DNA of 64,000 nucleotides, from positions 49,499-113,498 of the IMG/VR virus record IMGVR_UViG_3300032050_000036; one strand, given 5' to 3'. Shown piece after piece: positions 7,991 through 24,534 of the stretch. Both the position numbers and the translations under genes were made by a program. Every line of letters starts with the position of its first letter. The stretch's first letter is position 1. The notes beneath the pieces are model-generated. The model saw only the letters and a program-made list of their open reading frames with translations. It had not been told where the DNA came from and made no database searches. Source of the stretch: a virus.

Positions 7991-8018
7991 CCACCTGAGC
8001 ATGTGGATAAAAGGCTCA
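7991..8018 (+). ncRNA. H-type pseudoknot motif copy 1 (3' of hsp20)
   Basis: CCAC-CTGAGCAT-GTGG-ATAAAAG-GCTCA. Confidence 0.65.
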
Positions 8019-8081
8019 TTATTCATTTATAATTTGCTTTAAATTAATATACATTTTAAAAACATAAGATACTCTTATAAC

Positions 8082-9095
8082 ATGAAACTTAAAGTCTTTA
8101 TTATTTCTTTAGTGCTTTTATTAGGCACTTTTACTAATTCAGCAGCACAAGCAACAGATTTAAAAGGTGCTGGATCTACCTTCTCTGCAAACTTTATAGA
8201 TAAGTGCAGAGTAATGTATGGACAACAAACAGGAAAAGTTTTAAACTATACACCAAATGGTTCTGGAGCAGGAAGAAATTTTTTTAATAATAAACTTGTA
8301 GATTTTGCTGTATCAGATACACCATACTCAAGTCTGGATAGAAAACCTTCTGAAAACTTTGTATATGTTCCATTGGTTGCTGGTCCAGTAGCAGTTGTTT
8401 ATAATCTAAAAGACTATAGAATAACTCTCAAACTAACCAAGCAAGTAGTAGCAAAAATATTTGCTGGAGAAATTACAATGTGGAACGATCCAGAAATTCA
8501 AAAACTTAATGTTGGAAAATTACCAAAGACAAAAATAACAGTATTGTATAGAATAGATGGATCTGGCACTTCTGAAGTGTTTACATCTTACCTAAATTCA
8601 GTTGCTCCAAACATTTGGACTAAACCAGGAAACAAAACTTTCTCAACAGCATTTCCAGGTAATATAAATAATTATGTTGGAGCGTTTCAATCTGCAAGCG
8701 GATCAACTCAGATTGCATTTTTGCAGTCTACACTTAATGGATCTATTTCATATAATGAAGTTTCTTATGCTAAAGGATTTAAGTCTGCTTCAATTGAAAA
8801 TGAGGCTGGTAGATTTACTAATCCTACCCCTTCTGCAGCAGCATCATTTTTATCTAACTTTAAATTTAACCAAGATGGGTCTGCCGTATTAGATTATAAA
8901 AATACTAATAAACTTGCATATAACATATCAACTTTTGCATATGGTGTTGCCTATACTAATAGTGGATCAAATGCTGCAACAGTTAGAGAGTTTTTGACAT
9001 TTGCTATAACAAAATGTAATAAAATAGAAGGATATGCTCCAATTACTGGAAATGCCCTTAAAGTTGCAAAAGCACAAATAGCAAAGATAAAGTAG
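8082..9095 (+). CDS. pstS: Phosphate ABC transporter substrate-binding protein
   Basis: GAGSTF, GSGAG, DFAVSD, R.DGSGTS motifs; signal peptide. Confidence 0.92.
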   Translation: MKLKVFIISLVLLLGTFTNSAAQATDLKGAGSTFSANFIDKCRVMYGQQTGKVLNYTPNGSGAGRNFFNNKLVDFAVSDTPYSSLDRKPSENFVYVPLVAGPVAVVYNLKDYRITLKLTKQVVAKIFAGEITMWNDPEIQKLNVGKLPKTKITVLYRIDGSGTSEVFTSYLNSVAPNIWTKPGNKTFSTAFPGNINNYVGAFQSASGSTQIAFLQSTLNGSISYNEVSYAKGFKSASIENEAGRFTNPTPSAAASFLSNFKFNQDGSAVLDYKNTNKLAYNISTFAYGVAYTNSGSNAATVREFLTFAITKCNKIEGYAPITGNALKVAKAQIAKIK

Positions 9096-9107
9096 TATAA
9101 TTGTAAT

Positions 9108-9187
9108 AGTCCTCCGTAGGACCTTGGGATGATTAGTTACCATCTTATTTAACCTGGCCATCGTGCCTGAATTTCCTGCGGGGGATT
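9108..9187 (+). ncRNA. Putative structured small RNA
   Basis: 14-bp terminal stem 9108-9121/9174-9187 enclosing two hairpins; TATAAT at 9096-9101. Confidence 0.6.
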
Positions 9188-9216
9188 TATAATTCCCCTG
9201 TATAATAATCTTATCT

Positions 9217-9480
9217 ATGACTGACAAAGAACTTCATAGGCAAAAACAGGCTTACAAGAAAAGACTGACAGAAATAAAACAGTCTAGCGGATGTGTAGAC
9301 TGCGGAGAAACAAATCCAATTGTTTTAGATTTTGATCATCTTAAAGACAAAAAATATAATGTTTCAAGAATGATTCACGATGGATTTTCCTGGAAGGCTA
9401 TCAAAAAAGAAATAGATAAGTGTGAAGTTGTTTGTGCTAATTGTCACAGGATAAGAACTCACTATAGGCTTATTAATTAA
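9217..9480 (+). CDS. HNH endonuclease
   Basis: CVDC, LDFDH, CANCH. Confidence 0.88.
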   Translation: MTDKELHRQKQAYKKRLTEIKQSSGCVDCGETNPIVLDFDHLKDKKYNVSRMIHDGFSWKAIKKEIDKCEVVCANCHRIRTHYRLIN

Positions 9481-9485
9481 TTATT

Positions 9486-9662
9486 TTAAGAATTTTTAAT
9501 ATCTGTAATTATTGCATCTGCAAGTTCTTTACTAAAATGTACGTGCCCCGAGGCCAATTTTTCAAATGCTGGTGATAATTTTACAATAATGTTATTTTTT
9601 GTAATTTCCATTATTTGGTGTACAAGAATTTCTGCCTGTTGCTGTGATGTTAGTTCTTCCAT
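9486..9662 (-). CDS. Small hypothetical protein (58 aa, not in ORF track)
   Basis: MEELTSQQQAEIL...; TGATATAAT 6 nt before ATG. Confidence 0.6.
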   Translation of the reverse strand: MEELTSQQQAEILVHQIMEITKNNIIVKLSPAFEKLASGHVHFSKELADAIITDIKNS

Positions 9663-9699
9663 CTCTCAATTATATCATTAATATGGTATACTATTATCT

Positions 9700-10779
9700 A
9701 TGCCATATCGTATAGGTGCTAAGGGGTCATCGGGTTGCTCTGGATACCCTGCTGTAAAGGACACAGGAGAGGTTATGGGCTGCCATAAGACTCGTCGTGA
9801 GGCTGCAGCACAGATCTATGCTATAAACCGCTCTGAGGGCAATATAGGCAAGGCTATGGTCAAAGAGGGCGACATGGTAATGGCTCCACACGAAGAAGAA
9901 ATGTATGTTGGTCGTGTAGTTCATGTAATGACAGAGGGCATGCTTGGTATGCCAGGATCAGAATATTCTCTTGAGGCATCAGCAGAAGAGCCTGCTATTT
10001 TAATTCAACTATTTGAAATGGAAGAAGGAGAATTAGAAGAAACAGAATATTTTGTTGGAGCAATGGCAAAAGATGTAATGGTTTTACCATCAATTGATTC
10101 AGGAGAAAGCATGGATAAAGCATATACAGGATGCGGATGTCCAATGTGTAAAGAATTAGATGTAACATGTGAGCAATGTCCACAATGCCAATCTGGAGAA
10201 ATGAAATCAGATTGTTGTGCTAATGTAGTTAAGCAAGCACCATGTTGGGATGGATATGTACAAAGGGGAATGAAGCCAGGAGAAAATGGTAAACCAGTTC
10301 CTAATTGTGTTCCAGCAGAAAAGGCTGATGATCTTTGGGAAGATTCTGATGATGTAGTGTATGAAACTGATTCAATGTCAAAAGCGGAAGGCTATTCTCC
10401 ACCAGCAGGTGCAAGAGCAGCAGCACGTAAAGCAATTAAATTTAAGGAACAAGGCAAGGCAAAAGGTGCGGGTACATCAGTAGGATGGACTCGTGCAGGA
10501 CAGTTGGCAAGAGGAGAAACATTGTCTCTTAGCACTGTTAAAAGAATGTACTCTTATTTTTCTCGTCATGAGGTTGATAAAAAGGGGAAGGATTGGGCTA
10601 ATCAATCAAATCCGTCCAATGGGTACATAATGTGGTTGGCATGGGGTGGGGATGCTGGCTATTCTTGGTCACGTCGTATCGTGAATGCAGAAAAGGATAA
10701 GGCTTTATTTGCTGACACCTTTAACTCTATAGAAAAACAAAGCAAGAGAATTCGTGGTAGTGGTAATGGCTTCTGGTAA
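9700..10779 (+). CDS. Multi-module phage protein, possibly head-associated
   Basis: Modules MPY..GC..GCH, CWDGY..GMK, and GWTRAGQLA..TVKRMYSYF.RH. Confidence 0.65.
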   Translation: MPYRIGAKGSSGCSGYPAVKDTGEVMGCHKTRREAAAQIYAINRSEGNIGKAMVKEGDMVMAPHEEEMYVGRVVHVMTEGMLGMPGSEYSLEASAEEPAILIQLFEMEEGELEETEYFVGAMAKDVMVLPSIDSGESMDKAYTGCGCPMCKELDVTCEQCPQCQSGEMKSDCCANVVKQAPCWDGYVQRGMKPGENGKPVPNCVPAEKADDLWEDSDDVVYETDSMSKAEGYSPPAGARAAARKAIKFKEQGKAKGAGTSVGWTRAGQLARGETLSLSTVKRMYSYFSRHEVDKKGKDWANQSNPSNGYIMWLAWGGDAGYSWSRRIVNAEKDKALFADTFNSIEKQSKRIRGSGNGFW

Positions 10780-10921
10780 ATCTTCTGGAAAATACAGAAC
10801 AAAACATCCGTTTAACCCTATTCAAATTAAAGACGGAATGATAGTTCGTCTAAGAAAAGATGGTACCATAAAAGCCGTGCTTGGCAAGTATGGCGAATAT
10901 GGCAAAAAAAATAAAAATTAA
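10766..10921 (+). CDS. Small basic hypothetical protein (51 aa)
   Basis: MASGKSSGKY...IVRLRKDGT; overlaps previous stop. Confidence 0.55.
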   Translation: MASGKSSGKYRTKHPFNPIQIKDGMIVRLRKDGTIKAVLGKYGEYGKKNKN

Positions 10922-11073
10922 TTATTTTGCTCTTTGTTAATTAAGTCTACTATTTCTTTTGCATATTTGTCATAATCTATTTCAATAATAAAATTTCCGT
11001 CAATTAATTTATGAATTTTAATTTCTTTTCCTATTTCAAATAAAATATTTTTAATTTTATCTTCTATATTCAT
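10918..11073 (-). CDS. Small hypothetical protein (51 aa)
   Basis: ATGA overlap with GT61 stop. Confidence 0.55.
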   Translation of the reverse strand: MNIEDKIKNILFEIGKEIKIHKLIDGNFIIEIDYDKYAKEIVDLINKEQNN

Positions 11074-12134
11074 AATAAGTTTTTGTTTTTTTCTAATTCC
11101 GAAAGAATTTCATCAATATGTACTGCCCCTAAGCCATACTGTTTTCTGTCTGGAATAATGTAAACATTTTCAGTTGCTACATTTTTAATTAATGAATCAA
11201 AAAACCAATAGAAGTCCCTATTCGTTGTTATCATAAATACTTTTGTATCTGGATGTGCAAATATAGCATTATAACATCCAGTGCCATCTATTGATGCTAT
11301 ATGTGTTGCAGAAGAATATATATAAACCTGTTCTTCTAAAGTTAAGTCTTCATTATAGACTAATTCATAGCCCATATCAATAAAAAAGTTATCTATTTTA
11401 ATATTATCTGAGTGTATTCTATTTTGAAAATTTTGAGTAAATGCCTCTTCACCAACACGCATAACATATTCCCAAAATCTGTCTCCCTCTTCTTTACTCA
11501 TTTCATTATTTTTATATCTATAATAATTTTCTTTCCATTTTATATAAATTTGATCTGATTTTGATCTCGATATAAAAATTTTTTTATTAGGTGTTTGATT
11601 TTTATATTTTTTTAATTTATCTATGACACAATTACTGAGGTCAAACTGATGAGAAAAATCTTCATGACTAGTGTTATGAATTGGACCATTAGAAGGAACT
11701 ACATTTCTTAAACAGGGAATGAAAAAATTATAAAGATAATATACATTTTCAAATATAATTTTTTGATCAGAAATTATAACTATTTCATCCATCGAAGGAT
11801 TATAAATATTTACTAAACTTTTAAAAAGTCCAGAAAGGTCATTCAAAAATACTTCTTTGTTAATATCATCTTCTCGTTCTACAGTAAAAATTAACTTTAA
11901 ATCTTTTATATATTTTTTTAAGAATTCATATTGTCCTAGGCACTCTTGAACTATATGAAAGTATTGCCAATTTGATAATGATATAATAAAAACATTACCA
12001 TTAACAACTACTGGATCCTTTTTGGAATCATAATTTACTAAAACGTTGTTGACTTTATAAATTTTACTTTTTATACCTGGAACATCTATATATTCTATAG
12101 AATCCCACTTAGTCTTAAAAATCTTATCAGACAT
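11070..12134 (-). CDS. Glycosyltransferase family 61 (DUF563)-like
   Basis: YFH, KIFISR, LTLEEQV..YSSA..I...GTG..N.IF. Confidence 0.8.
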   Translation of the reverse strand: MSDKIFKTKWDSIEYIDVPGIKSKIYKVNNVLVNYDSKKDPVVVNGNVFIISLSNWQYFHIVQECLGQYEFLKKYIKDLKLIFTVEREDDINKEVFLNDLSGLFKSLVNIYNPSMDEIVIISDQKIIFENVYYLYNFFIPCLRNVVPSNGPIHNTSHEDFSHQFDLSNCVIDKLKKYKNQTPNKKIFISRSKSDQIYIKWKENYYRYKNNEMSKEEGDRFWEYVMRVGEEAFTQNFQNRIHSDNIKIDNFFIDMGYELVYNEDLTLEEQVYIYSSATHIASIDGTGCYNAIFAHPDTKVFMITTNRDFYWFFDSLIKNVATENVYIIPDRKQYGLGAVHIDEILSELEKNKNLL

Positions 12135-12459
12135 TTTTTGTTACAACAACCTTATCATTAGGCAAACTTGGAGTTTTTACACAAACAACTGAACACTCTG
12201 TTATAAAATTTACATCCGTTATTTCGTACGGCTCCAATATAAAAACATCGCCAGATATTAATTTTTTACCATTTAGAATCATTTCTCCAGATATTAACAA
12301 GTTTATTTCATATGCTATCTCTTGATAATGAAGGTCCCAATTTTCTCCAGCAGTATGTATTCTCCATGAAACTTCAAAATCTTTTGACTGAAAGGCAGCC
12401 TTTTCAAAATCTCCAATAAACCATCCCTTTTCAGTATTTTCAATTCTGCTAATCTTCAT
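12127..12459 (-). CDS. Cupin-fold protein
   Basis: GWFIGDF, HYQ...E, VKTPS..DK. Confidence 0.75.
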   Translation of the reverse strand: MKISRIENTEKGWFIGDFEKAAFQSKDFEVSWRIHTAGENWDLHYQEIAYEINLLISGEMILNGKKLISGDVFILEPYEITDVNFITECSVVCVKTPSLPNDKVVVTKNV

Positions 12460-13556
12460 AAACCTAATTTATCCCATTCAGTCTCTTCAAATCCTTGATC
12501 AGTTATAAGGTTTATAGAAGTAGCACGATCCCTATCTGACTCTAAATGTTTATCATTAATTAAAATTCTTTCGCCACTAGTTACTCCCATCACTAACTGA
12601 TCCCAGCAAAGACCTAGGTCTGTTAGTTGTTTTTCTGTTAGCATCCTTGCAGATTCTTTCCTAGCAGTCGTTAGAATTATCTTATGACCCTTAGAGTCCC
12701 ATTCATTAAACTTATCTATTACGCCTTTTAATGCTATGGCTGGTTCAAATCCGACATAACTAAATCTATGGACATGTTTAATTATTGTTCCATCTATATC
12801 ACAAAAAATAGTTTTAGGTTTTTCAGTATAGTATTCTCTTAGTTTACTGGAATATACTTCTAAATCTTGCGGGGTTCCAAGAGATATATAACCATTTCTT
12901 GGCATTTTAAAGGGAAGTATGTTAAGACCTTCTTCTATTAAATAATTATAAGTGGAGGAAATATAACATTCGCTAAATCCTTTTAGTCTATACTCTGAAA
13001 TTAATTTTTTTGCTGATCTTATAAAATCAGAACCACGCCTCCAATAATGTATACCTACAAGCGCATCCTCACTTATAACCTTTTTTTCTTCAATATTTAC
13101 AATCCTGTTGTTATCTATAACTGCAAAACTATTCTTAATGTCATTAGATTTAAAAATAGCAACTGACCCATCGCAATATGCAGATCTTGATAGTTCTAAA
13201 AATTTATCTGAATCCCACCTTAAAAGTTGATCACAGTTTGTTATTATTAATTCATCGTTGTTGTCTATATATTCTTTTGCATAAAGGGCTGCATCTGCAG
13301 CACCATATTGATCGTTATCTAAACATATTTCTATACAATCTGGCTTTAATTTTTTTAATATAGAAGACAGCCTATTGTTATGCTCAGGGTTTTCATATTT
13401 TCTTGTAATAAATATATATTGACCCACTATATTTAAAGAATCAACGGCATGCTCAATTAAATGTTTTTTATCTACCATGATTAATGGTTTTGGTTCTTGT
13501 ACCCCTGCATTTTTGAAGCGGGAACCCAGTCCAGCCATTGGTATAACTATATTCAA
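12456..13556 (-). CDS. Nucleotidyltransferase-like domain fused to HAD-like domain
   Basis: IPMAGLGSRF..PKPLI, LGTPQDL; CDIDGT, TAR, INDK; TTG start after AGGAG. Confidence 0.85.
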   Translation of the reverse strand: MNIVIPMAGLGSRFKNAGVQEPKPLIMVDKKHLIEHAVDSLNIVGQYIFITRKYENPEHNNRLSSILKKLKPDCIEICLDNDQYGAADAALYAKEYIDNNDELIITNCDQLLRWDSDKFLELSRSAYCDGSVAIFKSNDIKNSFAVIDNNRIVNIEEKKVISEDALVGIHYWRRGSDFIRSAKKLISEYRLKGFSECYISSTYNYLIEEGLNILPFKMPRNGYISLGTPQDLEVYSSKLREYYTEKPKTIFCDIDGTIIKHVHRFSYVGFEPAIALKGVIDKFNEWDSKGHKIILTTARKESARMLTEKQLTDLGLCWDQLVMGVTSGERILINDKHLESDRDRATSINLITDQGFEETEWDKLGL

Positions 13557-13589
13557 GAAAAACTCCTTCTTCTGTTATAATTGTATCAT

Positions 13590-14669
13590 ATGAAACTTCA
13601 GTATGGCAATCAAGATCCAGATATTTATTCTTTTGAAAGTGCTTCGCTAAAGGGCTTTCCATTATTTGAAATACCTTCAGTTCATATTAAAAATCTTAAA
13701 TTCAGCAATCAACCTGAAGAAGACTATGAGTATATTTCAGGAAAGGTATTTTTAGTTCCAGCAGCAAATGATTTTTATCATGCCCTAACAGATACTATGG
13801 CCCATTATGAATCTTTAAAAACAGTTTATCCAGATTTAAAAATAATTTTTTGTTCTAATGACAATATGTACACTATAGATAGATATATTGGCATAAACAG
13901 AAAATACATGCTAGAAATTTTAAAAATTTATAATATAGAATATAAAGATATTCTTGATATAAAAAACAAAAATTATATATTTGAAGAGGTAATACATTTG
14001 CCACATAGATCGCAATGGCACCAAGACAGGATTGTTCCTTTTGAAATACAACAAAATCTAAAAAATTTTACTCACGATGAGACTTGGTCTTATAGAAAAT
14101 TTATGATAAATTCTTTAAAACAAAAATTTTATAATCAAATAATTGATAAAGAACCTAAAAAAATATATGCATCACGTATGCCATATAAGACTAATCCTAT
14201 AGATTATTCAAAATTATCTGACGAAGATCAAAGATATTGGAATTTTAGATCACAAGAAATAAATAGACAATATAAAGATGAAGAAAAACTTATAGATTAT
14301 TTTTTAAATAAAGGCTATGAAGTGTTAAATTTTGGAAACATGTCATTAATAGATCAAATAAGTGAATGCTATTATTCGACTGAACTTGCTGGAATCAATG
14401 GATCTAATATTTTTAATTTTATATGGGCAAAGCCAGAAACAAGAACACACATTATTTATGTAACAAATGCATGGAATTATGGTTTTTGGAAATACTTTGA
14501 TTATTGCAAATTGAATTACAAGCAAATAGGATTAAAAGAAGTTCTTAAGGTTGAGTATTTAAATAGAGTTGATACTGGAAAAGCAGTCATTCATCCTCCA
14601 ATAGATTTTGATAAATTATATTTTGCAGACCATAAGGTTTTAATTGATGAACTTGAGAGCCTCCTGTAG
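13590..14669 (+). CDS. Glycosyltransferase family 61 (DUF563)-like
   Basis: FYH, KIYASR, MSLIDQI, GSN..N.IW. Confidence 0.8.
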   Translation: MKLQYGNQDPDIYSFESASLKGFPLFEIPSVHIKNLKFSNQPEEDYEYISGKVFLVPAANDFYHALTDTMAHYESLKTVYPDLKIIFCSNDNMYTIDRYIGINRKYMLEILKIYNIEYKDILDIKNKNYIFEEVIHLPHRSQWHQDRIVPFEIQQNLKNFTHDETWSYRKFMINSLKQKFYNQIIDKEPKKIYASRMPYKTNPIDYSKLSDEDQRYWNFRSQEINRQYKDEEKLIDYFLNKGYEVLNFGNMSLIDQISECYYSTELAGINGSNIFNFIWAKPETRTHIIYVTNAWNYGFWKYFDYCKLNYKQIGLKEVLKVEYLNRVDTGKAVIHPPIDFDKLYFADHKVLIDELESLL

Positions 14670-14729
14670 GATTTGAACCTACGACAATCCGCTTACAAGG
14701 CGGGTACTCTACCACTGAGTTAAGGAGGC
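14658..14729 (-). tRNA. tRNA-Thr(TGT)
   Basis: Cloverleaf GCCTCCT/AGGAGGC, anticodon loop CTTGTAA, GGTTCAAATCC. Confidence 0.92.
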
Positions 14730-14730
14730 G

Positions 14731-14802
14731 TAGCACTAACGGGAATCGAACCCGTCTTTCCGCCGTGAAAGGGCGATGTCCTAACCGATAGACGATAGTG
14801 CC
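14731..14802 (-). tRNA. tRNA-Glu(TTC)
   Basis: GGCACTA/TAGTGCT, loop CTTTCAC, GGTTCGATTCC. Confidence 0.92.
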
Positions 14803-14806
14803 AATA

Positions 14807-15145
14807 TTATATTTTTAATGATCTCATATATGTCCTATGCCTATGGCAGTTAGCACATACTATTTCACATTTTGGTATTTCTTCTAACAATTGTTTCATT
14901 GTACCATTTCTTACAATAGCATTTATGTTAGCCTTTTTAATACCACGCACATGATCGAAATCTAATTGATGTGGAGGGTATGATATTTCACATTCTAAGC
15001 ATATTGAATTATTTAGTTTATAGTTTAAAACATATAGGTTTCTTTCATTTCTTTTATCTTTAGATCTTTTTATAGTTAAAGATTTGTTTCTTTCGTACCA
15101 GGCTTTTTTGGCAGCCTTTTGTTGTAAACTATCCTTATATGGCAT
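14807..15145 (-). CDS. HNH endonuclease within tRNA cluster
   Basis: CLEC, LDFDH, CANCH. Confidence 0.88.
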   Translation of the reverse strand: MPYKDSLQQKAAKKAWYERNKSLTIKRSKDKRNERNLYVLNYKLNNSICLECEISYPPHQLDFDHVRGIKKANINAIVRNGTMKQLLEEIPKCEIVCANCHRHRTYMRSLKI

Positions 15146-15160
15146 ACTTCTCCCTTCAAG

Positions 15161-15234
15161 CGATGCGTACGAGACTTGAACTCGTGACCTCCACCGTGAC
15201 AGGGTGGCGTTCTAACCAACTGAACTAACGCACC
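15161..15234 (-). tRNA. tRNA-Asp(GTC)
   Basis: GGTGCGT/ACGCATC, loop CTGTCAC. Confidence 0.92.
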
Positions 15235-15238
15235 TTCG

Positions 15239-15311
15239 CTGGTCTGGCAGGTCTCGATCCTGCGACATCTCGATTAACAGTCGAGTGTTCTACCAACTGA
15301 ACTACAGACCA
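15239..15311 (-). tRNA. tRNA-Asn(GTT)
   Basis: TGGTCTG/CAGACCA, loop CTGTTAA; T-loop ATCGAGA. Confidence 0.88.
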
Positions 15312-15326
15312 ATTATTATATTGTAG

Positions 15327-15399
15327 CACCCTCGATTGGATTCGAACCAACGACAAACGGATTAGAAGTCCGCTACTCTATCCACTGAGTTACAAGGGT
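15327..15399 (-). tRNA. tRNA-Arg(TCT)
   Basis: ACCCTTG/CGAGGGT, loop CTTCTAA. Confidence 0.92.
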
Positions 15400-15406
15400 A
15401 TATTTG

Positions 15407-15480
15407 TAGAGCAGGTAGGACTTGAACCTACGATAGCCGAATTATGAGTTCGGGGCCTTGACCAACTTGGCTACTGCTCC
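15407..15480 (-). tRNA. tRNA with CAT anticodon (elongator Met or Ile2)
   Basis: GGAGCAG/CTGCTCT, loop CTCATAA; lacks initiator hallmarks. Confidence 0.88.
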
Positions 15481-15492
15481 TTGAATATTTAA

Positions 15493-15919: not shown

Positions 15920-15920
15920 A

Positions 15921-17305: not shown

Positions 17306-17623
17306 ATGGACCCTACTATCCTATATATAGTATATCACCAAGGATATAATGCCATTAAGGTGGGTATAGGGGATATTGCTGGTAAAAGGTTTAAAGCCCA
17401 TAGGACCAAAGGGTGGGAACTGGTTTGTTATTGGTATTTTCAAAATAGGCGGGATGCAAAAAGAGTCGAATCTATAGTACTACAAACCCTAAGAGAGAGA
17501 TATGGACATTATCTGGATAAGGGGGATATGCCATATGGGGGATATACGGAGACATTTAATGCCAAGAAAATAACCAAGAGAAGGTTAATTGGTTTGGTCA
17601 ATAGGGCTATAAGGGGATCTTGA
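17306..17623 (+). CDS. GIY-YIG/T5orf172-like nuclease
   Basis: ILYIV...IKVGI...R...E...GYTETF; TATAAT 6 nt before ATG. Confidence 0.65.
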   Translation: MDPTILYIVYHQGYNAIKVGIGDIAGKRFKAHRTKGWELVCYWYFQNRRDAKRVESIVLQTLRERYGHYLDKGDMPYGGYTETFNAKKITKRRLIGLVNRAIRGS

Positions 17624-17646
17624 TATCCCCGCTTTTTTATACCCTA

Positions 17647-17754
17647 TTATCCCCAAGATCTCATTACAGAAATTAATACAAGAAGATAGGCCACCCATCC
17701 TGTGATAAATCCGTATATGAATATTGCTGGTTTGCTAATTAAAAGTTTCTTCAT
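17647..17754 (-). CDS. Small membrane peptide (35 aa)
   Basis: MKKLLISKPAIFIYGFITGWVAYLLVL; TATAAT 6 nt before ATG. Confidence 0.5.
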   Translation of the reverse strand: MKKLLISKPAIFIYGFITGWVAYLLVLISVMRSWG

Positions 17755-17774
17755 TTAACCATTATACATGGAAG

Positions 17775-17795
17775 TTATCCACAGGTTTATCCACA
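17775..17795 (+). promoter_or_regulatory. Tandem DnaA boxes
   Basis: TTATCCACA at 17775 and 17787. Confidence 0.7.
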
Positions 17796-17833
17796 GAAAT
17801 ATCTTACTGATTATATTATTGGATAGGGTTAAA

Positions 17834-17859
17834 GTGGAGTAAAGTGGAGGATAGTGGAG
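17834..17859 (+). promoter_or_regulatory. MraZ-type binding repeat
   Basis: GTGGAG x3 with 4-nt spacers. Confidence 0.55.
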
Positions 17860-18132
17860 CATGGAGCGCTTTTTAAGGCGGGGATCGTAATGTCAAACCA
17901 TAAACCCTATATCCCAAACCATATATCCTTCAAACCCTTATACCATATATGCCCCATATCTGTCAAACCATGTATAAAAGGTTTGGCATTATACATTCAA
18001 AACCATGGTTTGTCAAGTATCTTCGTAAAGGAATTTGAATGAAAAATTGCCAAAAGTCTGGGAAAATTCTGATAATTTCGTAATATGTTTTATTATGCCA
18101 AAAAATGTTTTAAAACCAGGAAATATGGTTTG

Positions 18133-18327
18133 TTATTGGTTATTAGGGGGATTGGAGTTGGTATCTTTTTCTATACCGTCCTTAAGAACGGGCGGTACAA
18201 AAGAAAAGTAATTAGACAAACCAATCTTATGGGTAATAGAAACAAATGTATTCCAAACCTGGTCTTGTCCTTTATTGTATGCTACTGGATCTGATTTTCT
18301 AAGGTTTGAAAAGTGTCTTGGACTCAT
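18133..18327 (-). CDS. Hypothetical protein
   Basis: TGTTACAAT 6 nt before ATG. Confidence 0.55.
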   Translation of the reverse strand: MSPRHFSNLRKSDPVAYNKGQDQVWNTFVSITHKIGLSNYFSFVPPVLKDGIEKDTNSNPPNNQ

Positions 18328-18621
18328 ATATTAATTGTAACACTCTTTATACCGCCCAAACTTTCAGCGATTTTTTGGACGGCGTTCGTAATGTCTTTTT
18401 ATCCTGTGTTTTGCGCTGGGCGCCCCAAATTTGGCGGGGGATAAAAAGATACCGTAATACTACCTATATAAGTATACATAGATACAATGGTTTGACAAAC
18501 AAAATATATTATGCTACATGGTTTGGGAAAAATATGGTTTGATCGTAATCTGGGAAAAATGGTTTGGTATCGTAATGGTTTGTTAACAAAGAAAAATGCA
18601 CCGACCCGTTTTCAGGGCTTT

Positions 18622-18897
18622 TTACGAATTGTCAAATCCTAAAAGCAATTCATCAAGACTAGAGTATCCTGTATCTTTGACACCAAGTGACTCTAAAAAT
18701 AAGTCCCATGTTTCATTTACATATCGTGTAGCCATTTCAGAAGCAGGAATAATTTCTTGTGAAATAGAAAACGCTAATGGCAAACCAATGTCGTTGTATT
18801 CGATAAAATCTTCAAACTCAGACTCACCTTTATAATTTAACCACAAGTCTGCCAAAATATTACATCTGCTAGAAAAGTCTGTATTGGTGTTGCTCAT
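18622..18897 (-). CDS. Hypothetical protein
   Basis: GAGGAG RBS; YNDIGLPLAF. Confidence 0.7.
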   Translation of the reverse strand: MSNTNTDFSSRCNILADLWLNYKGESEFEDFIEYNDIGLPLAFSISQEIIPASEMATRYVNETWDLFLESLGVKDTGYSSLDELLLGFDNS

Positions 18898-19081
18898 TGT
18901 ATTTCTCCTCTTTGTGGTATTGTGCGCTTTCTGCGATAGTGATAAGTCTGTTGTAGGAAACTGTTGGTGCGATTACTGCTAAATACTCGCCTACCTGCTC
19001 AATGTCAAGGCGAAGGTCAGATACGATAGCGGAAATACGCATGGCAACTTTCTCCTCGTCAGTTAGTCTGTGTTTTCTCAT
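18869..19081 (-). CDS. Hypothetical protein
   Basis: AAGGAG RBS before MRKHRL. Confidence 0.7.
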   Translation of the reverse strand: MRKHRLTDEEKVAMRISAIVSDLRLDIEQVGEYLAVIAPTVSYNRLITIAESAQYHKEEKYNEQHQYRLF

Positions 19082-19179
19082 AGTTCTCCTTATAGTCATT
19101 GTATCAAATAAGATGTGGGGGCGCAAGTAGAAGAAAGGTGCTACCTACGCCCCCTTATTACGGAGGGGACCCAACCCTC

Positions 19180-19536
19180 CTAGGATGTGACCGTCGTCAC
19201 AAGACTGTGATAGTTAATAAAATCTTGTATAGTATGTATACCAGTGTCATCAGTTACAGTCTTATTAATTAAATCAATTAGCACGGGATGGTCCATGAAT
19301 CCCAGGTCGTTAGGATTGCAGGCATAAATTCCATACCCCGTCTCGTCCATAATATTATCCTTGATTAGATAACTAACAGCCATACGTACATAGTATGACT
19401 CATCACCTAGGCGTGGTGCTGCATGCTGCAGGGCTGCTGCCAGGTCTGTATACATAGAGTATTCACCCCAATGGCTGTATAAGGCCACTGCCTGGTCTTC
19501 TGACTGCTTAAAAACGAATGTACAACGTGCTCCCAT
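19180..19536 (-). CDS. Hypothetical early protein
   Basis: GAAAGGA RBS; TTGACA-17-TACACT promoter at 19569-19597; LYSHWG. Confidence 0.75.
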   Translation of the reverse strand: MGARCTFVFKQSEDQAVALYSHWGEYSMYTDLAAALQHAAPRLGDESYYVRMAVSYLIKDNIMDETGYGIYACNPNDLGFMDHPVLIDLINKTVTDDTGIHTIQDFINYHSLVTTVTS

Positions 19537-19735
19537 GGTGGGTCCTTTCGATAGTTGGGTTTTCTTCTAGTGTATCAAATTTTAGGTCTAATGTCAATTG
19601 CTCGTACATCATGCCTCCTCAAAAGCAACTACAGATAGATCTGAAAGTACTTCGCTCCAGATCTCTCCCTCTCCAGCCTCTGATTCAACCACAAATTTCA
19701 TATAGGTCCCAGAAGGCTCGTGTATTACTTCAATA

Positions 19736-20032
19736 TTATACTGTGGCATTGTCTTCCCTTTCTGCTATAGCAAATGATAATTGATAAGTTAATTGATAAA
19801 CTGCAGCAAGAGCGTCACATTGTCCCTCCCAGTACTTACGTTCCATAGATTCTAAAGCGTCGCTATAGTCATTGGCTTCCTCTATACGCTGCGCTTCTTC
19901 TAGTTCTAGTTGAGCCTCATACATCCAGTTCTTCATCTCACCATGAATGATATCCAAGGCTGAAATATTTTCATCTACCATATGCTGCAGGTGCTCATCT
20001 AGATTGTAATCTGGATTAAAGTTTGTTTGCAT
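19736..20032 (-). CDS. Hypothetical protein
   Basis: GGAG RBS before MQTNF. Confidence 0.65.
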   Translation of the reverse strand: MQTNFNPDYNLDEHLQHMVDENISALDIIHGEMKNWMYEAQLELEEAQRIEEANDYSDALESMERKYWEGQCDALAAVYQLTYQLSFAIAEREDNATV

Positions 20033-20222
20033 GCTCTTCTCCAATCTGTATAAAATGGCGGGTAGCAATAGCCTGCCCACCCAACCAGTTAAATTCAAAA
20101 TCTAACTCTAGGAACTCTTTAGAATTCATATCTAAATCTTCCATTTGTTTTTCTATCTCTTCTTTGTCTTGCTCAATAGAAATGAGATGTGCTTTCATGT
20201 ATTCAATTAGGTAATTAGACAT
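20016..20222 (-). CDS. Hypothetical protein
   Basis: Coupled ORF. Confidence 0.65.
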   Translation of the reverse strand: MSNYLIEYMKAHLISIEQDKEEIEKQMEDLDMNSKEFLELDFEFNWLGGQAIATRHFIQIGEEHANKL

Positions 20223-20955
20223 CGACTTGGTCCATTCTATAGTTGGGTATATATTCCTCAGTTAAGTATACTTTATGGATGTCGCAATCTGCAACTGCTT
20301 CTAAGTCTGCCTCGCCTAGATAGTGACAAGAATCACAGATTTCTCCACAATCGTTATCACAGTATTCTAATGTATTAATTTCATCACAATCTCTACATTT
20401 GTTTTCATAGTTAGAATCTTGAATGATAACTCCAGCAAGATATTCTGTCTCACCACCCCAACCTGTTTCTTCCTCATAAGACAAGGTAATGTTTAGGTTT
20501 GGATAATCAAAAGATAGTCTTTGTATAGCAGGATGTGGCGGAGACCAAGCGGTATTAAACTTATACTGTAAAGAGGTTTCGTCTTCTTCGTATAACTCAG
20601 TCTCAGGATAATCTTCTCCGTCACGAACTGATACATCCCACTTAGTTCCCCACTCACGAACATTAAAGTCATACCAGCATTTACCCTTAAACTGTAATTG
20701 CTCTGCCATGGGCAGGGTATGGTCAGGTTGCTTCATATAATCTTCATCACTAATACCTGCTTGTATATGATTATAGATATTATGGAAAGCAAATATAGGG
20801 TTAGAGTATGAAGTCTCAGTTAACTCCATTTGTCTTGTTTCCATATTAAACTGGTCATGCATTTTAGTAAATGGTTGGTTAAGTTGTGCCTTAACCTTAG
20901 CAATGTCTTGTTCATTGCCTTCGATAGTTAGATAGTTGTAACACCAATTTGGCAT
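20215..20955 (-). CDS. DUF1281/Api92-like ferredoxin-domain protein
   Basis: MPNWCYN, WGTKWD, FNTAWSPP; TTGACA-17-TAGAAT promoter. Confidence 0.8.
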   Translation of the reverse strand: MPNWCYNYLTIEGNEQDIAKVKAQLNQPFTKMHDQFNMETRQMELTETSYSNPIFAFHNIYNHIQAGISDEDYMKQPDHTLPMAEQLQFKGKCWYDFNVREWGTKWDVSVRDGEDYPETELYEEDETSLQYKFNTAWSPPHPAIQRLSFDYPNLNITLSYEEETGWGGETEYLAGVIIQDSNYENKCRDCDEINTLEYCDNDCGEICDSCHYLGEADLEAVADCDIHKVYLTEEYIPNYRMDQVDV

Positions 20956-21170
20956 TATGGGTCCTTTCTGTGGGTTCTTGTATTATTCTAGCAAATTAGG
21001 TAGGGTATGTCAAACACGTCCCTCTGCCAATAGTCCTAGTAAGAAGTCCTCTAGATCTCTAAGTACTGATACATCTTCCTCTGCAAACTTAGTATCCTTA
21101 ATATGGTGATGGATAGAATAATTTAATATCATAGCCATATTTTCTACCTGCTCTGTTGTATATCCTAGCA

Positions 21171-21401
21171 TTATGCATTCTCCTTTTCCATAAGAATATT
21201 ATAGGCGGCAAGGCTGGTTATGTCAATATTTATTTCTCTACCAGGGTATTTATTAATTAGGAAATTAACTGCATCTCCTGCTGATTTAAAGTCACTATAG
21301 TTTTCTGAATATCCATATCCTTGTATAGTTATTTCCCAGCAATCAATCCCACCAGGTGAGACAGAGTATTCCATTTCATATATTTGTGCATTTAGGGTCA
21401 T
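21171..21401 (-). CDS. Hypothetical protein
   Basis: TTGATT-17-TATGAT promoter immediately upstream. Confidence 0.65.
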   Translation of the reverse strand: MTLNAQIYEMEYSVSPGGIDCWEITIQGYGYSENYSDFKSAGDAVNFLINKYPGREINIDITSLAAYNILMEKENA

Positions 21402-21545
21402 GGTTTAATCATATCAAAATCTAGGGGAAAAATCAAGTTCTACGTAATAAAAAAAATTCATGACATTTTTAGTCGGTTACGTAATAAAAGTTTTTGATGA
21501 TATTTTTAGTCGGCCACTTTTTTGATCTTTTGTCAAATAAAAAAT

Positions 21546-21573
21546 TGAGCAGTTTATACTCATGCTCAGGAGT
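21546..21573 (-). ncRNA. H-type pseudoknot motif copy 2
   Basis: ACTC-CTGAGCAT-GAGT-ATAAAC-TGCTCA. Confidence 0.7.
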
Positions 21574-21582
21574 TGAATTAGA

Positions 21583-22590
21583 TTAAACTAATTCTAAAGT
21601 GTTGCGAACAACATTTAGCAAACGATTTTTTTCTGCTGTGATAGCAGGGTCAAAACCACTTGAACCCATTAGGATTGATTCAGTAAGACCACGCTTACCA
21701 CCACGATACCAATCGATTCTTTCTGTGAGTGCGTTCCAAGCACCCCAAGCAGTATTGGCAATCATGCCATTGAATTCGCCTGTGTAAATATCATTGATTA
21801 AATCAACTTTATTTGTCCACTTAGAAAGTGCGCCTTTCTTAGTTTCATCAGGCTTAGGATACGCAGCCAAAACAATATCATTGAATTGTTGCGCTGTGAT
21901 TTCTTTTTCAATCATGAGTTGCGCCATGATAGAAAATTCGTCCATGTAAGCATTAGCAACAGCAAGAGCCTCACGAGCCTGTTGAACTTTACCCTCAGCA
22001 GATTGTGTGTGACGAATCTTGAATGATTGCTTTACGCCATTGTTTTTCTTAGTGCGACCAAGAGCAACAGCGAGAGTGTTAGCGCATACAACACGAACAG
22101 GTGTCACGCTTGCTTGAATAGCAACAGAACCATCGTGTGATGTATTAACAAGAAGATAAGTCTTAACCTTATCCGCTACACCATTAGGGTCAAGAACAGT
22201 CTCACGCTCAAGAGCAAGAGAACCGAAAACAACACGACCACTACGCAATGAGCCAGCAGTCTCCCAACGACCTCCGCCATCAAGAATTGCATCACCAAAA
22301 GTGAATAGTTCTTCATTTTGTAGTGGGACATAGCGTTCACCAACAACGCCTAAGACATCAACTTGATTTGCGGTGAATGGATTATCACGCACAACATATT
22401 GATAAGATTTATCAGATGTAAGAGTAGATGGGATTTCTACATCTTCAAGACGAACATTCCAACCATCAAGGTTAGCGAGTTCCAACATTTTTTCAGTAGT
22501 GACTTCCTCCTGAAAAACAGTTCCTAAACCATGCCAAGCAGGTTCACGGAATGAAGCGAAAGAATTAGCAGATTCTAATTCATGAGCCAT
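21583..22590 (-). CDS. DUF932 (TIGR03299-like) phage/plasmid protein
   Basis: MAHE..PAWHGLG, ETAGSL, NTSHDGS, PVRVVCANTL; GAAAGGA RBS. Confidence 0.88.
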   Translation of the reverse strand: MAHELESANSFASFREPAWHGLGTVFQEEVTTEKMLELANLDGWNVRLEDVEIPSTLTSDKSYQYVVRDNPFTANQVDVLGVVGERYVPLQNEELFTFGDAILDGGGRWETAGSLRSGRVVFGSLALERETVLDPNGVADKVKTYLLVNTSHDGSVAIQASVTPVRVVCANTLAVALGRTKKNNGVKQSFKIRHTQSAEGKVQQAREALAVANAYMDEFSIMAQLMIEKEITAQQFNDIVLAAYPKPDETKKGALSKWTNKVDLINDIYTGEFNGMIANTAWGAWNALTERIDWYRGGKRGLTESILMGSSGFDPAITAEKNRLLNVVRNTLELV

Positions 22591-22621
22591 ATTTATTTCC
22601 TTTCTATTTTTAGTTATTCTT

Positions 22622-22643
22622 ATCTTAGCACAACGGGCTGACA
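22622..22643 (-). promoter_or_regulatory. PafBC/RecA-NDp-type promoter
   Basis: TGTCAG-cccgttgtgc-TAAGAT. Confidence 0.65.
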
Positions 22644-22733
22644 AAAGCAAATCCTGGAATTTGGGCGTTTTGATCGTAACTACGTAAAACGGACATTTTA
22701 GGACAAAACGGGCCGACCACTTTTTTGAGGAAG

Positions 22734-22763
22734 TGAGCAGTTTACGTGGACGTGCTCAGGTCC
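22734..22763 (-). ncRNA. H-type pseudoknot motif copy 3
   Basis: GGAC-CTGAGCAC-GTCC-ACGTAAAC-TGCTCA. Confidence 0.7.
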
Positions 22764-22843
22764 CTCACGGTCTCTTTGAAAGAAAGGATGAAAGAAGAGA
22801 TCCGTGCACATTGCGTGGCCTTTCATGAACCACGCAAATTTAT

Positions 22844-23254
22844 TTAGATGTCGATGTTGTCGACGCTTGCAGAAACATGTGTTACATGATTCATATCATA
22901 TGTGATTGCTTCAAAATCAATATCATTAATTATTGATTCTGCGTCTTCACCTGCAGGAACTTCAATTGTTAAATAGTAAGTTACGGTAACCTCTGCTTCA
23001 ACTTCCTTGGTAAGTTCGAATGCACCAATCTCAGAAAGTTCAACAGCCTGCTCTTCAGTGATGTTGCCATTCTCTAGATTCTCCATGGTCCATTCATGTA
23101 GACCAGTTGACATTGCATTTAGTGCAGCAGCAGTGCTAAAGTCACGCTGTACAACACGAGCATGAGACTCTTCTACAGTCTTTACTCGCTCCTCTAGTTG
23201 CTTGATTGTATTACGAAGATATTCCTCCGTAGCATTAATTACATTAGTTTCCAT
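22844..23254 (-). CDS. Hypothetical early protein
   Basis: GAAAGGA RBS. Confidence 0.7.
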   Translation of the reverse strand: METNVINATEEYLRNTIKQLEERVKTVEESHARVVQRDFSTAAALNAMSTGLHEWTMENLENGNITEEQAVELSEIGAFELTKEVEAEVTVTYYLTIEVPAGEDAESIINDIDFEAITYDMNHVTHVSASVDNIDI

Positions 23255-23516
23255 CTGTGATATCCTTTCCTAGACTATCAAATTCGTTTATTTCATTAAT
23301 CATAGCATCCATTTCACTTTCTGTCAATAAAACATTAGTGACCAATGTTGCTGTAAGAGATGAGAGTAGCGCAGAATATTTAAATAACATCTGTGCGAAA
23401 TCATTATCTGACATTTCATTTCTTGCGTGTAGTAGTTGTGAAGCAATAGCCATTGACATATCGTCATGGACTGCGTCTTTAGTTGCTTCTTGTATTGCTA
23501 TAGCGGTTGCTATCAT
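23244..23516 (-). CDS. Hypothetical early protein
   Basis: GAAAGGA RBS before MIATA. Confidence 0.7.
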   Translation of the reverse strand: MIATAIAIQEATKDAVHDDMSMAIASQLLHARNEMSDNDFAQMLFKYSALLSSLTATLVTNVLLTESEMDAMINEINEFDSLGKDITDGN

Positions 23517-23542
23517 CTTAGTTTCCTTTCTTTCTAATACTA

Positions 23543-23564
23543 AGTTTAGCATTGGGTTCTGACA
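23543..23564 (-). promoter_or_regulatory. PafBC/RecA-NDp-type promoter
   Basis: TGTCAG-aacccaatgc-TAAACT; TTGACA also upstream. Confidence 0.65.
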
Positions 23565-23581
23565 TTTGTCAAGTTGGAGGT

Positions 23582-23609
23582 GGGGCAGTTTTACATCATA
23601 CCCAGGATG
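23582..23609 (-). ncRNA. H-type pseudoknot motif copy 4
   Basis: CATC-CTGGGTAT-GATG-TAAAAC-TGCCC; compensatory change in stem 2. Confidence 0.7.
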
Positions 23610-23735
23610 ATCCCTCTAGGAATACCCGCAAGGACTTTCGTCACTTCATTTGTTAGCGGGGCTTATCAAGAGAGAAACCTGTTGTGGCGGGGGTAATTAC
23701 GATTACACACCCGAAACCCGCCACAATTATTTAGA

Positions 23736-24158
23736 TTACAAGTATCTTGCGATAGCGTTGTAAGTAGAAGTAGAAACTACTTCCTCATCTGTCATCTTGA
23801 GAATACGAATTGCGTTCTCAATTTCATCTTTTTGCTCACGATACTGCCACTCATGAATAGACACATAGTCTTTCTTGGGTTCATCAGGTAGCGTGATAGT
23901 TCCAGCAGGTAGAGAGAAAGATACTTGGATTTCGTTATTGTATCTCTTATGAGCAGATAAGTCCTCTGCCTTAGCAATTTTATCAAGTGCTAATTTAGCG
24001 ACTTCCTTGTTCCAAGCCTTTACTGCCTTGTCGTGCTTTGCTTCGTTCGCCTCTTGTGAAGCGAAGTCTTTATTTAGTTTATCAAGTGCGCTTTCTAGTG
24101 CCTTGATAACCTTAGTTGTAGCGATTTTTACATTTATCGCTTTGCCATTTCTAGCCAT
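23736..24158 (-). CDS. Hypothetical early protein
   Basis: GAAAGGA RBS; TTGATT-17-TAGACT promoter. Confidence 0.75.
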   Translation of the reverse strand: MARNGKAINVKIATTKVIKALESALDKLNKDFASQEANEAKHDKAVKAWNKEVAKLALDKIAKAEDLSAHKRYNNEIQVSFSLPAGTITLPDEPKKDYVSIHEWQYREQKDEIENAIRILKMTDEEVVSTSTYNAIARYL

Positions 24159-24221
24159 TTATTTATCCTTTCTTAGTGGGTTGTTATTTATAGTCTAGCA
24201 TTTTTACTGCTAGAAATCAAG

Positions 24222-24251
24222 TGAGCAGTTTTAGTAGCCATGCTCAGGGCT
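24222..24251 (-). ncRNA. H-type pseudoknot motif copy 5
   Basis: AGCC-CTGAGCAT-GGCT-ACTAAAAC-TGCTCA. Confidence 0.7.
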
Positions 24252-24267
24252 TTTCCTGTATTAGGAA

Positions 24268-24435: not shown

Positions 24436-24534
24436 TTCTTTCTCCTTTGTTAGTTGGTTGTTATTACTTGTATTATTATGACATTTTTGAGAGATAATGT
24501 CAAGCCGAAACCTGACATTTCTCACATTTTGAGA

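Follow-up and report, generated by a model that had tools for sequence, protein, structure and literature searches.

A viral DNA stretch of 64,000 nucleotides, hereafter called the window, was analyzed from the IMG/VR virus record IMGVR_UViG_3300032050_000036 (positions 49,499 to 113,498), where it forms the right-hand 64 kb of a complete 113.5-kb genome with direct terminal repeats and a G+C content of 35%. The question raised by this locus is what is served by an RNA fold of about 30 nucleotides (nt) that recurs downstream of five of its genes. An original prediction, made from the letters of the DNA, described five miniature H-type pseudoknots in 3' untranslated regions (3' UTRs) and offered 3'-end protection, termination, ligand or protein binding, or mimicry of type III antitoxin RNAs as functions. 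All five sites, at 7991 on the plus strand and at 21546, 22734, 23582 and 24222 on the minus strand, exist as described there. In tailed phages they form part of a very large, uncatalogued family of compact H-type RNA pseudoknots, and sequence comparison shows that the fold is real and selected, with both stems covarying. At roughly even confidence, and judging from position, each knot would work autonomously as a roadblock, capping the RNA upstream of it at its 3' end.

Read directly, the five sites share one architecture, with the consensus NNNC-C-UGAGCA-Y-GNNN-(N)nAAAC-UGCUCA. The first stem (S1) has four base pairs of free sequence with an invariant closing C-G pair, and the first loop (L1) is a single invariant C. 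The second stem (S2) has five to six base pairs, usually UGAGCA with UGCUCA, and is separated from S1 by one junction nucleotide (L2). The third loop (L3) is variable in length in its 5' part, totalling 6-8 nt in the window copies, and invariant in its 3' part, AAA(C). Copy 1 (7991-8018, plus strand; CCAC C UGAGCA U GUGG AUAAAA GGCUCA; 36 bits with the covariance model) begins 20 nt past the stop codon of an hsp20 gene; it pairs 7991-7994 with 8003-8006 in S1 and 7996-8000 with 8014-8018 in S2, with C7995 as L1 and AUAAAA as L3. Copy 2, of the canonical form (21573-21546, minus strand; ACUC C UGAGCA U GAGU AUAAAC UGCUCA; 47 bits), begins 9 nt past the stop of a DUF932 gene and is followed by AUUUUUUAUUUG. 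Copy 3, also canonical (22763-22734, minus strand; GGAC C UGAGCA C GUCC ACGUAAAC UGCUCA; 37.2 bits), has an 8-nt L3, ACGUAAAC, and begins 80 nt past the stop of a gene for 136 amino acids (aa). Copy 4 carries a covariant S2 (23609-23582, minus strand; CAUC C UGGGUA U GAUG UAAAAC UGCCCC; 33.7 bits) in which GGGUA pairs with UGCCC and the terminal U.C is unpaired, and it begins about 125 nt past the stop of a 140-aa gene. Copy 5, canonical again (24251-24222, minus strand; AGCC C UGAGCA U GGCU ACUAAAAC UGCUCA; 44.5 bits), has an 8-nt L3, ACUAAAAC, and begins 16 nt past the stop of an 85-aa gene. As had been predicted, S1 differs in every copy and nevertheless pairs in all five (CCAC/GUGG, ACUC/GAGU, GGAC/GUCC, CAUC/GAUG and AGCC/GGCU).

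Pattern scans and the covariance model both found exactly five copies and no sixth in the whole 113.5-kb genome, all of them within the window and occurring singly, 0.6-13 kb apart. The five sites scored 33.7-47 bits, and the best other match in the window 12.9 bits. The pattern TGAGCA-N5-20-TGCTCA occurred three times against an expectation of 0.07. The bare geometry of a 4-bp stem with a 6-bp loop-to-tail pairing gave 188 chance matches in the genome, so the five copies alone are weak evidence, and it is the shared sequence and the family outside this phage that carry the case.

The first pattern used on IMG/VR fixed only S2 and the loops and left S1 unspecified. It matched at least 120 contigs; among the 131 matches listed, S1 paired at four of four positions in 102 and at three of four in 24, where about 2% would be expected to pair fully by chance. 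Dozens of different S1 sequences were represented among these matches, 92 of which shared one spacing (24 nt overall). In an alignment of 133 copies, 98% of cells were paired, seven of the ten pairs had changes on both sides, none of 500 shuffles reached the observed score, and no slid register approached it; the significant covariation on which the predicted fold depended is thus present in a larger sample. A covariance model, R1, in which S1 was entered as paired and S2 was not, recovered 174 copies in 100 loci, with up to five per locus. Compensatory S2 variants among its matches included UAAGCA/UGCUUA, UGGACA/UGUCCA, UAGACA/UGUCUA, UGAACA/UGUUCA and UGAGUA/UACUCA. At orthologous sites after DUF932 homologues, S1 read AAUC, ACUC, AGUC, AUUC or CAUC, each with its matching partner, and one relative carried GAAC/GUUC where this phage has GAGC/GCUC, the rest of the element being identical. 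Within the window, the S2 covariation noticed in copy 4 was real, since the form GGGUA/UGCCC recurred in 51 other IMG/VR contigs with a covarying S1. Copy 1 departs from the predicted consensus, with AAAA-GGCUCA at its 3' side and A8001.G8013 in place of an A-U pair; this form is itself a recurrent subtype (subtype 2), found in 38 IMG/VR contigs with a covarying S1. All five window copies show every defining feature of the family as represented by alignment A1 and model R1: the 4-bp S1 with its closing C-G pair, C as L1, S2 pairing between loop and tail, and an L3 whose end reads AAA(C/A).

Mispairs in S2 among the R1 matches comprised 21 G-U and no A-C, which indicates that the sense strand folds and points to RNA rather than duplex DNA. 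Positions +1 to +3 almost never hold a G, a base that would there lengthen S2 at the expense of L1 and S1 and so abolish the knot. The same observations bear on the idea that the site works as DNA, either as a protein operator or as a single-stranded DNA hairpin for replication or recombination. TGAGCA...TGCTCA is an inverted repeat, the window copies lie near promoters, and the gain or loss of the element between the mycobacteriophages Labelle and Patience (see below) looks cassette-like; but only one strand folds, the half-sites stand at variable distances of 10-19 nt, a duplex operator would have no use for the nested covarying stem, and the strand of the knot tracks gene direction on both strands of the genome. 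A role at the DNA level is accordingly given only a very slight chance.

The unpaired positions are as constant as S1 is free. L1 was C in 150 of 150 copies, the three A residues of L3 were present in 149-150 of 150 and the C that ends L3 in 149 of 150, and L2 was U, A or C. The two subtypes differ by a joint change of two adjacent junction bases (AC-U to AA-G), and at the site of copy 5 relatives with the same flanks have either subtype 1 or subtype 2. The invariant unpaired bases (the L1 C, the AAA-C of L3) cluster with the closing C-G pair at the helical junction, and a pocket between S1 and S2 could bind a small ligand or a universal host factor, so that many phage genes would respond to one signal. 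The topology is that of the preQ1-I riboswitch aptamer (RF00522), which also resembles the knot in its length of about 30-34 nt, its A-rich tail and its conserved core at the P1/P2 junction, and the joint subtype change resembles the specificity switches seen in riboswitch variants. No match to RF00522 was found at gathering score or at E values up to 10 in the window, a 3-kb slice or two slices of 71-76 nt, and the Rfam preQ1 models gave no match. The preQ1-I L2 has 4-6 nt and holds the recognition C, whereas the single L2 nucleotide of the phage motif is variable; and S2, at five to six base pairs and -4 to -5 kcal/mol, would be stable without a ligand (each stem alone is predicted at -1.5 to -5.4 kcal/mol). 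PreQ1-I lies in 5' leaders of queuosine genes with P2 over the Shine-Dalgarno sequence (SD) or a terminator; the phage knot stands at gene ends in many copies per genome, after rather than before the genes with which it travels, and its 3' S2 strand (S2b) is apart from the SD, so that no expression platform and no alternative terminator or antiterminator is apparent. Insofar as both subtypes occupy the same orthologous site in relatives, they also look interchangeable. A sensor or binding site, which covers the ligand- or protein-binding option of the original prediction, is consequently regarded as rather improbable.

The scope of five members was an understatement, as the motif is present in at least 200 IMG/VR phage contigs. 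Single copies confirmed by the model occur in the cultured phages Mycobacterium phage Labelle, Paracoccus phage ParKuw1 (Autographiviridae) and Erwinia phage Berlingot (Chaseviridae). Further matches, obtained by BLAST only with a 32-nt query, were to Synechococcus phages S-EIVl and S-RIM4, a group of Vibrio phages, Lentibacter phages and gut Bacillota phages. In Labelle the element follows directly after a stop codon, whereas its close relative Patience has a different spacer there and no copy anywhere. The Labelle knot and about 200 nt with a possible unannotated small open reading frame (ORF) lie between gene 85 and tRNA-Gln (locus L243, 2490-2710), and an unrelated 55-nt spacer occupies this site in Patience (L244, 2300-2360), as if the element had been gained or lost as part of a cassette. 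The Berlingot knot is found in a 1.5-kb stretch without annotated genes, part of which appears tRNA-like by eye (L242, 1910-3430).

Among prokaryote assemblies, about 40 well-formed copies were found in contigs of metagenome-assembled genomes (MAGs) labelled Saccharibacteria, Actinomycetes, Anaerolineae, Atribacterota, Segatella, Methanobrevibacter and others, which may be prophage or host DNA. Matches in prokaryote contigs were kept only if they had the commonest spacing (24 nt) and a paired S1; roughly as many were chance matches in high-GC coding DNA, and 66 of 121 matches failed S1. Nearly identical copies were seen in a short leader in Saccharibacteria MAG contigs (L157, 3755-3835; also L121, L160 and L206), where a 14-codon upstream ORF (MSSDREQWAGPEHD) ends within L3 and GGGAGG and an ATG follow about 20 nt later. 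A coding explanation suggested by this example (P-E-H, or a stop/start overlap) was discarded, as no frame was consistent across copies. Contigs binned as Methanobrevibacter (L148 and L171) contain two copies, UGAC C UGAGCA U GUCA UUUAAAC UGCUCA followed by a U run; if this binning is right, the motif reaches archaeal viruses.

No catalogued relative was found. Rfam 15 gave no family match, either at gathering score on the whole window or at E values up to 10 on three slices, where only tRNAs and noise were returned. No description of the motif was found in the literature, including searches with literal sequence strings, and it was not mentioned in the passages searched of the Minerva preprint and of the main text of the IMG/VR paper on 10,006 candidates. 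Megablast of 21000-25000 against GenBank phages gave no match, and complete Escherichia coli genomes gave none with the 32-nt BLAST query, a search of low sensitivity given the variability of S1. When 2,743 ORFs from 121 loci were clustered all against all, no protein family was common to more than 24 of the loci, the large families merely marking relatives of this phage, and a dedicated partner protein is therefore unlikely. The single copies in cultured phages that are otherwise unrelated, and the presence of the element in Labelle but not in Patience, agree with this.

This distribution also bears on the suggestion that the knot is an anti-defence decoy, imitating either the pseudoknotted RNA of a type III antitoxin or some other host RNA on which a defence nuclease acts. 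The element is small and pseudoknotted and lies in the early region here, and phages are known to carry pseudo-ToxI RNAs. Antitoxin RNAs are system-specific, however, and nearly the same sequence is present in phages of Actinomycetota and of Alpha- and Gammaproteobacteria, with BLAST-only matches in phages of Cyanobacteria and Bacillota; the knot travels with the end of the upstream gene; and ToxI-type tandem arrays of repeats of about 34-36 nt are absent, the five copies being single and dispersed. The antitoxin mimicry offered originally thus found no support, and a decoy of any kind appears highly unlikely.

What the copies share, apart from their own sequence, is their place relative to genes. 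Ninety percent of the copies lie between genes, and about 83% have the sense orientation relative to each neighbouring ORF, the strand of the knot following gene direction on both genome strands. No genuine copies were found inside ORFs; the in-frame cases were chance matches in high-GC bacterial contigs, without the AAAC loop end. These large outside samples bear out the original description of an H-type pseudoknot lying sense to genes in 3' UTRs ahead of the next promoter-like site. The distance from stop codon to S1 in 202 copies was never 0-3 nt; two copies had 4 nt, 22 had 5 nt, 15 had 6 nt, and 73 in all fell at 5-11 nt. With the stop codon in the A site, a spacer of 5 nt puts a structure at the mRNA entrance of the ribosome, and by ribosome geometry this is the closest that a fold can be with the ribosome reaching the stop codon without unwinding it. 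On the other side, about one third of copies have an SD and a start codon within the next 12-40 nt, with no sharp preferred distance, and the SD may begin as little as 2-9 nt after the knot. The 44 nt downstream of the knot have no excess of structure (mean z -0.13; 7% below -2), and the 44 nt upstream are often structured (mean z -1.2), with recurrent hairpins between hsp20 and the knot.

A conserved structured element with a covarying hairpin was seen in several phage groups in the hsp20 3' UTR between the stop codon and the knot. It ends with AGGAU or CUGGUAU immediately before S1 and is present in L014, L108 and L109 (about 58 nt before the knot), in L009, L061 and L078, and in L037, L057, L097 and L098. 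It may represent an RNA motif of its own, or else the module in an extended form.

The spacing after the stop codon is one argument for a link to translation, in which the knot would act on ribosomes ending the upstream gene (by preventing read-on, frameshifting or uncontrolled re-initiation) or would dock on the 30S platform and set initiation at the next gene. With a lower limit of 4-5 nt and its highest frequency at 5-6 nt, this spacing matches that of frameshift and readthrough knots; the short distances to the SD and start codon noted above also fit a translational link, and a related-looking plant-virus motif, coremin, stalls ribosomes and stimulates -1 frameshifting (PMC10321173). Against such a link, copies with a tRNA at 4-14 nt are not followed by any ORF that they could regulate, the next start in the window comes 64-145 nt after the knot and beyond a promoter-like site, the start-codon distance lacks a sharp peak, and slippery heptamers at the right spacing are few (10 sites) and are A/T runs. 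A translational role is considered unlikely. The element was rejected as a frameshift site in particular: a heptamer was present at 10 of 218 sites, mostly as A/T runs after stop codons, and no genuine copy lay in an ORF.

Transfer RNA genes provide the second positional clue. A same-strand tRNA begins 4-14 nt after S2b in 17 of 167 copies and at 254 nt in one more; a tRNA lies upstream only once. Since a tRNA at 4-14 nt, or an SD-start pair at 12-40 nt, leaves no room for a promoter, polymerase must read through the knot, which is not a strong terminator. The proposal that it is an unusual terminator for host or phage RNA polymerase can draw on the window, where the knots close transcription units lacking a canonical terminator, and on the U run that follows copy 2 and a minority of the family. 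Most copies, however, are without a U tract, bases +1 to +8 being only about 40% U; the GC-rich hairpin with U tract of an intrinsic terminator is not a feature of the knot; and the same motif occurs in phages that use host RNA polymerase and in Autographiviridae, which use their own. Transcription termination, one of the functions first proposed, is thus disfavoured and is viewed as very unlikely.

The knot could instead mark an endonuclease site or be a tiny self-cleaving RNA, separating cistrons, small RNAs and tRNAs. Its intercistronic position and its location against tRNA 5' ends would fit such a processing signal, its sequence conservation exceeds the apparent need of a passive roadblock, and phages are rich in small ribozymes beside tRNAs, among them the theta (minimal hepatitis delta virus-like) ribozymes, which abut phage tRNA 3' ends and self-cleave (PMC10879173). 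Theta ribozymes resemble the knot as small pseudoknotted RNAs directly against phage tRNA genes, but they are nested double pseudoknots with a catalytic C and are cleaved at their own 5' end (PMC10879173), and the knot is half their size and lies before the tRNA 5' end rather than at the 3' end. With a spacing to the tRNA anywhere from 4 to 14 nt, the knot cannot set where the tRNA 5' end falls; in a motif of only about 28-32 nt, loop-helix triples could account for every conserved base; and no known ribozyme model matches, including the hepatitis delta virus-type Rfam models. A processing signal is held to be quite improbable.

The window itself shows the gene-end arrangement on both strands. 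The hsp20 gene upstream of copy 1 (7551-7970, plus strand; Pfam HSP20, E 1.5e-20) is preceded by a perfect sigma-70-like promoter found by promoter scan (7465-7493, plus strand). The next gene (8082-9095, plus strand) encodes a PstS-like periplasmic phosphate-binding protein (Pfam PBP_like_2, E 2.5e-34), and the two constitute an auxiliary-gene pair typical of aquatic phages. The DUF932 gene (21583-22650, minus strand; ORF list; Pfam DUF932, E 5e-46), the start of which is likely the ATG near 22590, lies upstream of copy 2 and downstream of copy 3. The remaining knots lie in the 3' UTRs of three small early genes from the ORF list, all on the minus strand: copy 3 follows the 136-aa gene (22844-23254), whose homologue family is common to 22 other loci; copy 4 follows the 140-aa gene (23736-24158), which is itself downstream of copy 5; and copy 5 follows the 85-aa gene (24268-24525). 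Each window knot is followed by a promoter-like site at 10-110 nt. On the minus strand the promoter scan placed TTGACA-18-TAAACT (23543-23572) 10 nt after copy 4, and TTGATT-17-TATGAT with a TG (21408-21436) about 110 nt after copy 2, ahead of a 76-aa gene (21171-21401). No intrinsic-terminator-like sites were found in 21100-24600, where 2.0 were expected. The statement that no terminator-style GC hairpin is present holds for the sequence after each pseudoknot; upstream of the knot, GC-rich hairpins without U tails were read from the sequence in two of the minus-strand 3' UTRs, one before copy 3 (22812-22834; GCGUGG...CCACGC) and a long one before copy 4 (23684-23724; GUGGCGGG...CCCGCCAC).

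Two further observations concern this neighbourhood. Downstream of copies 2 and 3, at 21440-21535 and 22650-22725 on the minus strand, the words AAAAAAGUGGYCGRC and UUACGUA occur twice each; they precede the next promoters, are possibly operator sites and are unrelated to the knot. A cluster of six tRNAs is present at 14658-15480 (minus strand), but none of the knots of this phage has a tRNA beside it, although in relatives tRNA-Asp comes directly after the DUF932 knot.

The nearest described RNAs to the phage motif are the coremin exoribonuclease-resistant RNAs (xrRNA-C and its Watson-Crick form xrRNA-WCC) from plant RNA viruses such as beny- and cucumoviruses, which are proven to obstruct an exonuclease and ribosomes mechanically and which block 5'-to-3' Xrn1 in eukaryotes (PMC6546385, PMC10321173). 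Mutational data on coremin describe a C-G-closed hairpin, a one-base L1 in which C can be replaced only by U, a loop strand of GAG type with its pairing partner downstream, and a spacer in which the 5' part tolerates insertion and A-A-A-C-U is essential (PMC6546385, PMC10321173). The phage motif has, in the same order, an invariant L1 C, GAG in the 5' strand of S2 and a variable 5' part of L3 followed by AAA-C-U; its L3 ends in AAA and C (149 of 150) before a U, and varies in length only on the 5' side. The differences are also substantial. Coremin has a 3-bp first hairpin with a YGAD tetraloop or a 6-nt loop (PMC6546385), and all aligned phage copies have a 4-bp stem with the 8-nt loop CUGAGCAY. 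The coremin S2 has three, partly non-canonical pairs, as against five to six Watson-Crick pairs; the C after AAA is paired in the WCC model and unpaired in the phage motif; and coremin needs a second hairpin (hp2) downstream for exonuclease resistance, where the phage motif shows no excess structure (z -0.13) and tRNAs or SDs often begin after only 4-10 nt. Coremin acts on Xrn1, while the phage hosts are without Xrn1 and the tRNA-adjacent copies argue for protection of upstream RNA. By its loop, the absent second hairpin and the register of the C, the phage motif is not a member of coremin, though it may work similarly.

Luteovirid frameshift knots such as that of beet western yellows virus (BWYV) are likewise compact and H-type, with the L1 C in the major groove of S2, an extruded junction nucleotide and an A-rich L3 in the minor groove of S1. 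The phage knot resembles them in its short L1 C, single junction nucleotide, A-rich L3 and position 5-9 nt after the decoded codon. Unlike them it stands in intergenic RNA after stop codons, without a slippery heptamer or an extended frame, has a longer S2 and a shorter S1, and occurs in several copies per genome in DNA phages. Knots of the luteovirid type have also been discussed together with coremin (PMC10321173).

The favoured reading can be set out on these comparisons. The knot would fold on the mRNA just past the stop codon, outside the terminating ribosome, and would be locked by loop-helix triples as in luteovirus-type knots, the C lying in the major groove of S2 and the A-run in the minor groove of S1; the conservation of its sequence would presumably serve mainly these triples. 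It would act as a mechanical roadblock on its own or with universal host enzymes. The transcript would be cut downstream, by RNase P at an adjoining tRNA and elsewhere by RNase E, Y or III, and the knot, then a few bases from the new 3' end, would stop 3'-to-5' exonucleases. From what is established for these enzymes, an RNase P cut at the adjoining tRNA would presumably leave a tail of 3-8 nt, too short for efficient loading of a 3' exonuclease. The upstream message (here hsp20, DUF932 and the three early genes) would thereby outlive its neighbours and be insulated from them. In this phage, each copy is located after a stop codon and before the next promoter-like site, and the units concerned have no canonical terminator.

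Two known arrangements have the same logic. Bacterial and phage 3' stabilizer hairpins (terminator hairpins, repetitive extragenic palindromic elements and the RNase III-site hairpins of T7) are intercistronic or lie in 3' UTRs, stop 3' exonucleases and give cistrons different lifetimes, which is the role proposed for the phage knot; they are simple and sequence-free or host-specific, whereas the knot is conserved in sequence across phages of many phyla. The 3' module of MALAT1 and MEN-beta consists of a triple-helix ENE (element for nuclear expression) followed by a tRNA-like RNA that is cut by RNase P. The likeness to this module is in logic only, a cut by RNase P at a downstream tRNA or tRNA-like RNA leaving a 3' end just past a compact structure that is presumed to be triple-stabilized; the folds differ, the MALAT1 module being a U-A.U triple helix that engages an A-rich tail in eukaryotic nuclear long noncoding RNAs.

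A gene-end cap is the simplest unifying reading because it accommodates polymerase read-through, the tRNA-adjacent copies without a downstream ORF and the association with upstream genes, and among the functions originally listed 3'-end protection fits the positional evidence best. The last association is seen with hsp20 homologues, which have a knot downstream in 20 of 21 loci, and DUF932 homologues, which have one in 18 of 24, the next gene varying; these figures are inflated, as the loci were ascertained by containing the motif, and so count in part against the cap. Several other points weigh on the same side. The function is assigned from position. Ordinary hairpins already do the 3'-end job in bacteria, so that a roadblock by itself leaves the near-invariant loop and S2 unexplained. 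The third of copies that lie 12-40 nt before a start codon make a role for the downstream gene inseparable in compact genomes. Finally, upstream neighbours and downstream neighbours on the opposite strand were equally frequent (28 each), which adds no support for an end-of-operon position.

A broader claim is put forward tentatively, namely that these knots may be the first exoribonuclease-resistant RNA class of prokaryotic viruses: a universal, protein-independent, triplex-locked knot in phages of most bacterial phyla that would set the lifetimes of single messages and small RNAs. Its ends would often be made by RNase P at an adjoining tRNA, as a bacterial counterpart of the MALAT1 end module, and its structural solution would be common with the coremin xrRNAs.

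The element of 30 nt with its near-invariant loop is present in hundreds of unrelated phage genomes, including cultured phages whose hosts represent three or more genera and two phyla. As neither Rfam 15 nor the literature searched contains it, it ranks among the more widespread phage RNA motifs that are uncatalogued. If it is a self-sufficient 3'-end cap or insulator, it would explain how neighbouring genes are expressed differently in phages with few canonical terminators, would improve the annotation of phage gene ends and small RNAs, and would give synthetic operons a very small portable part for stability and insulation. Because it resembles plant-virus xrRNAs and frameshift knots, it would also serve as a small model of how loop-helix triples create mechanical resistance.

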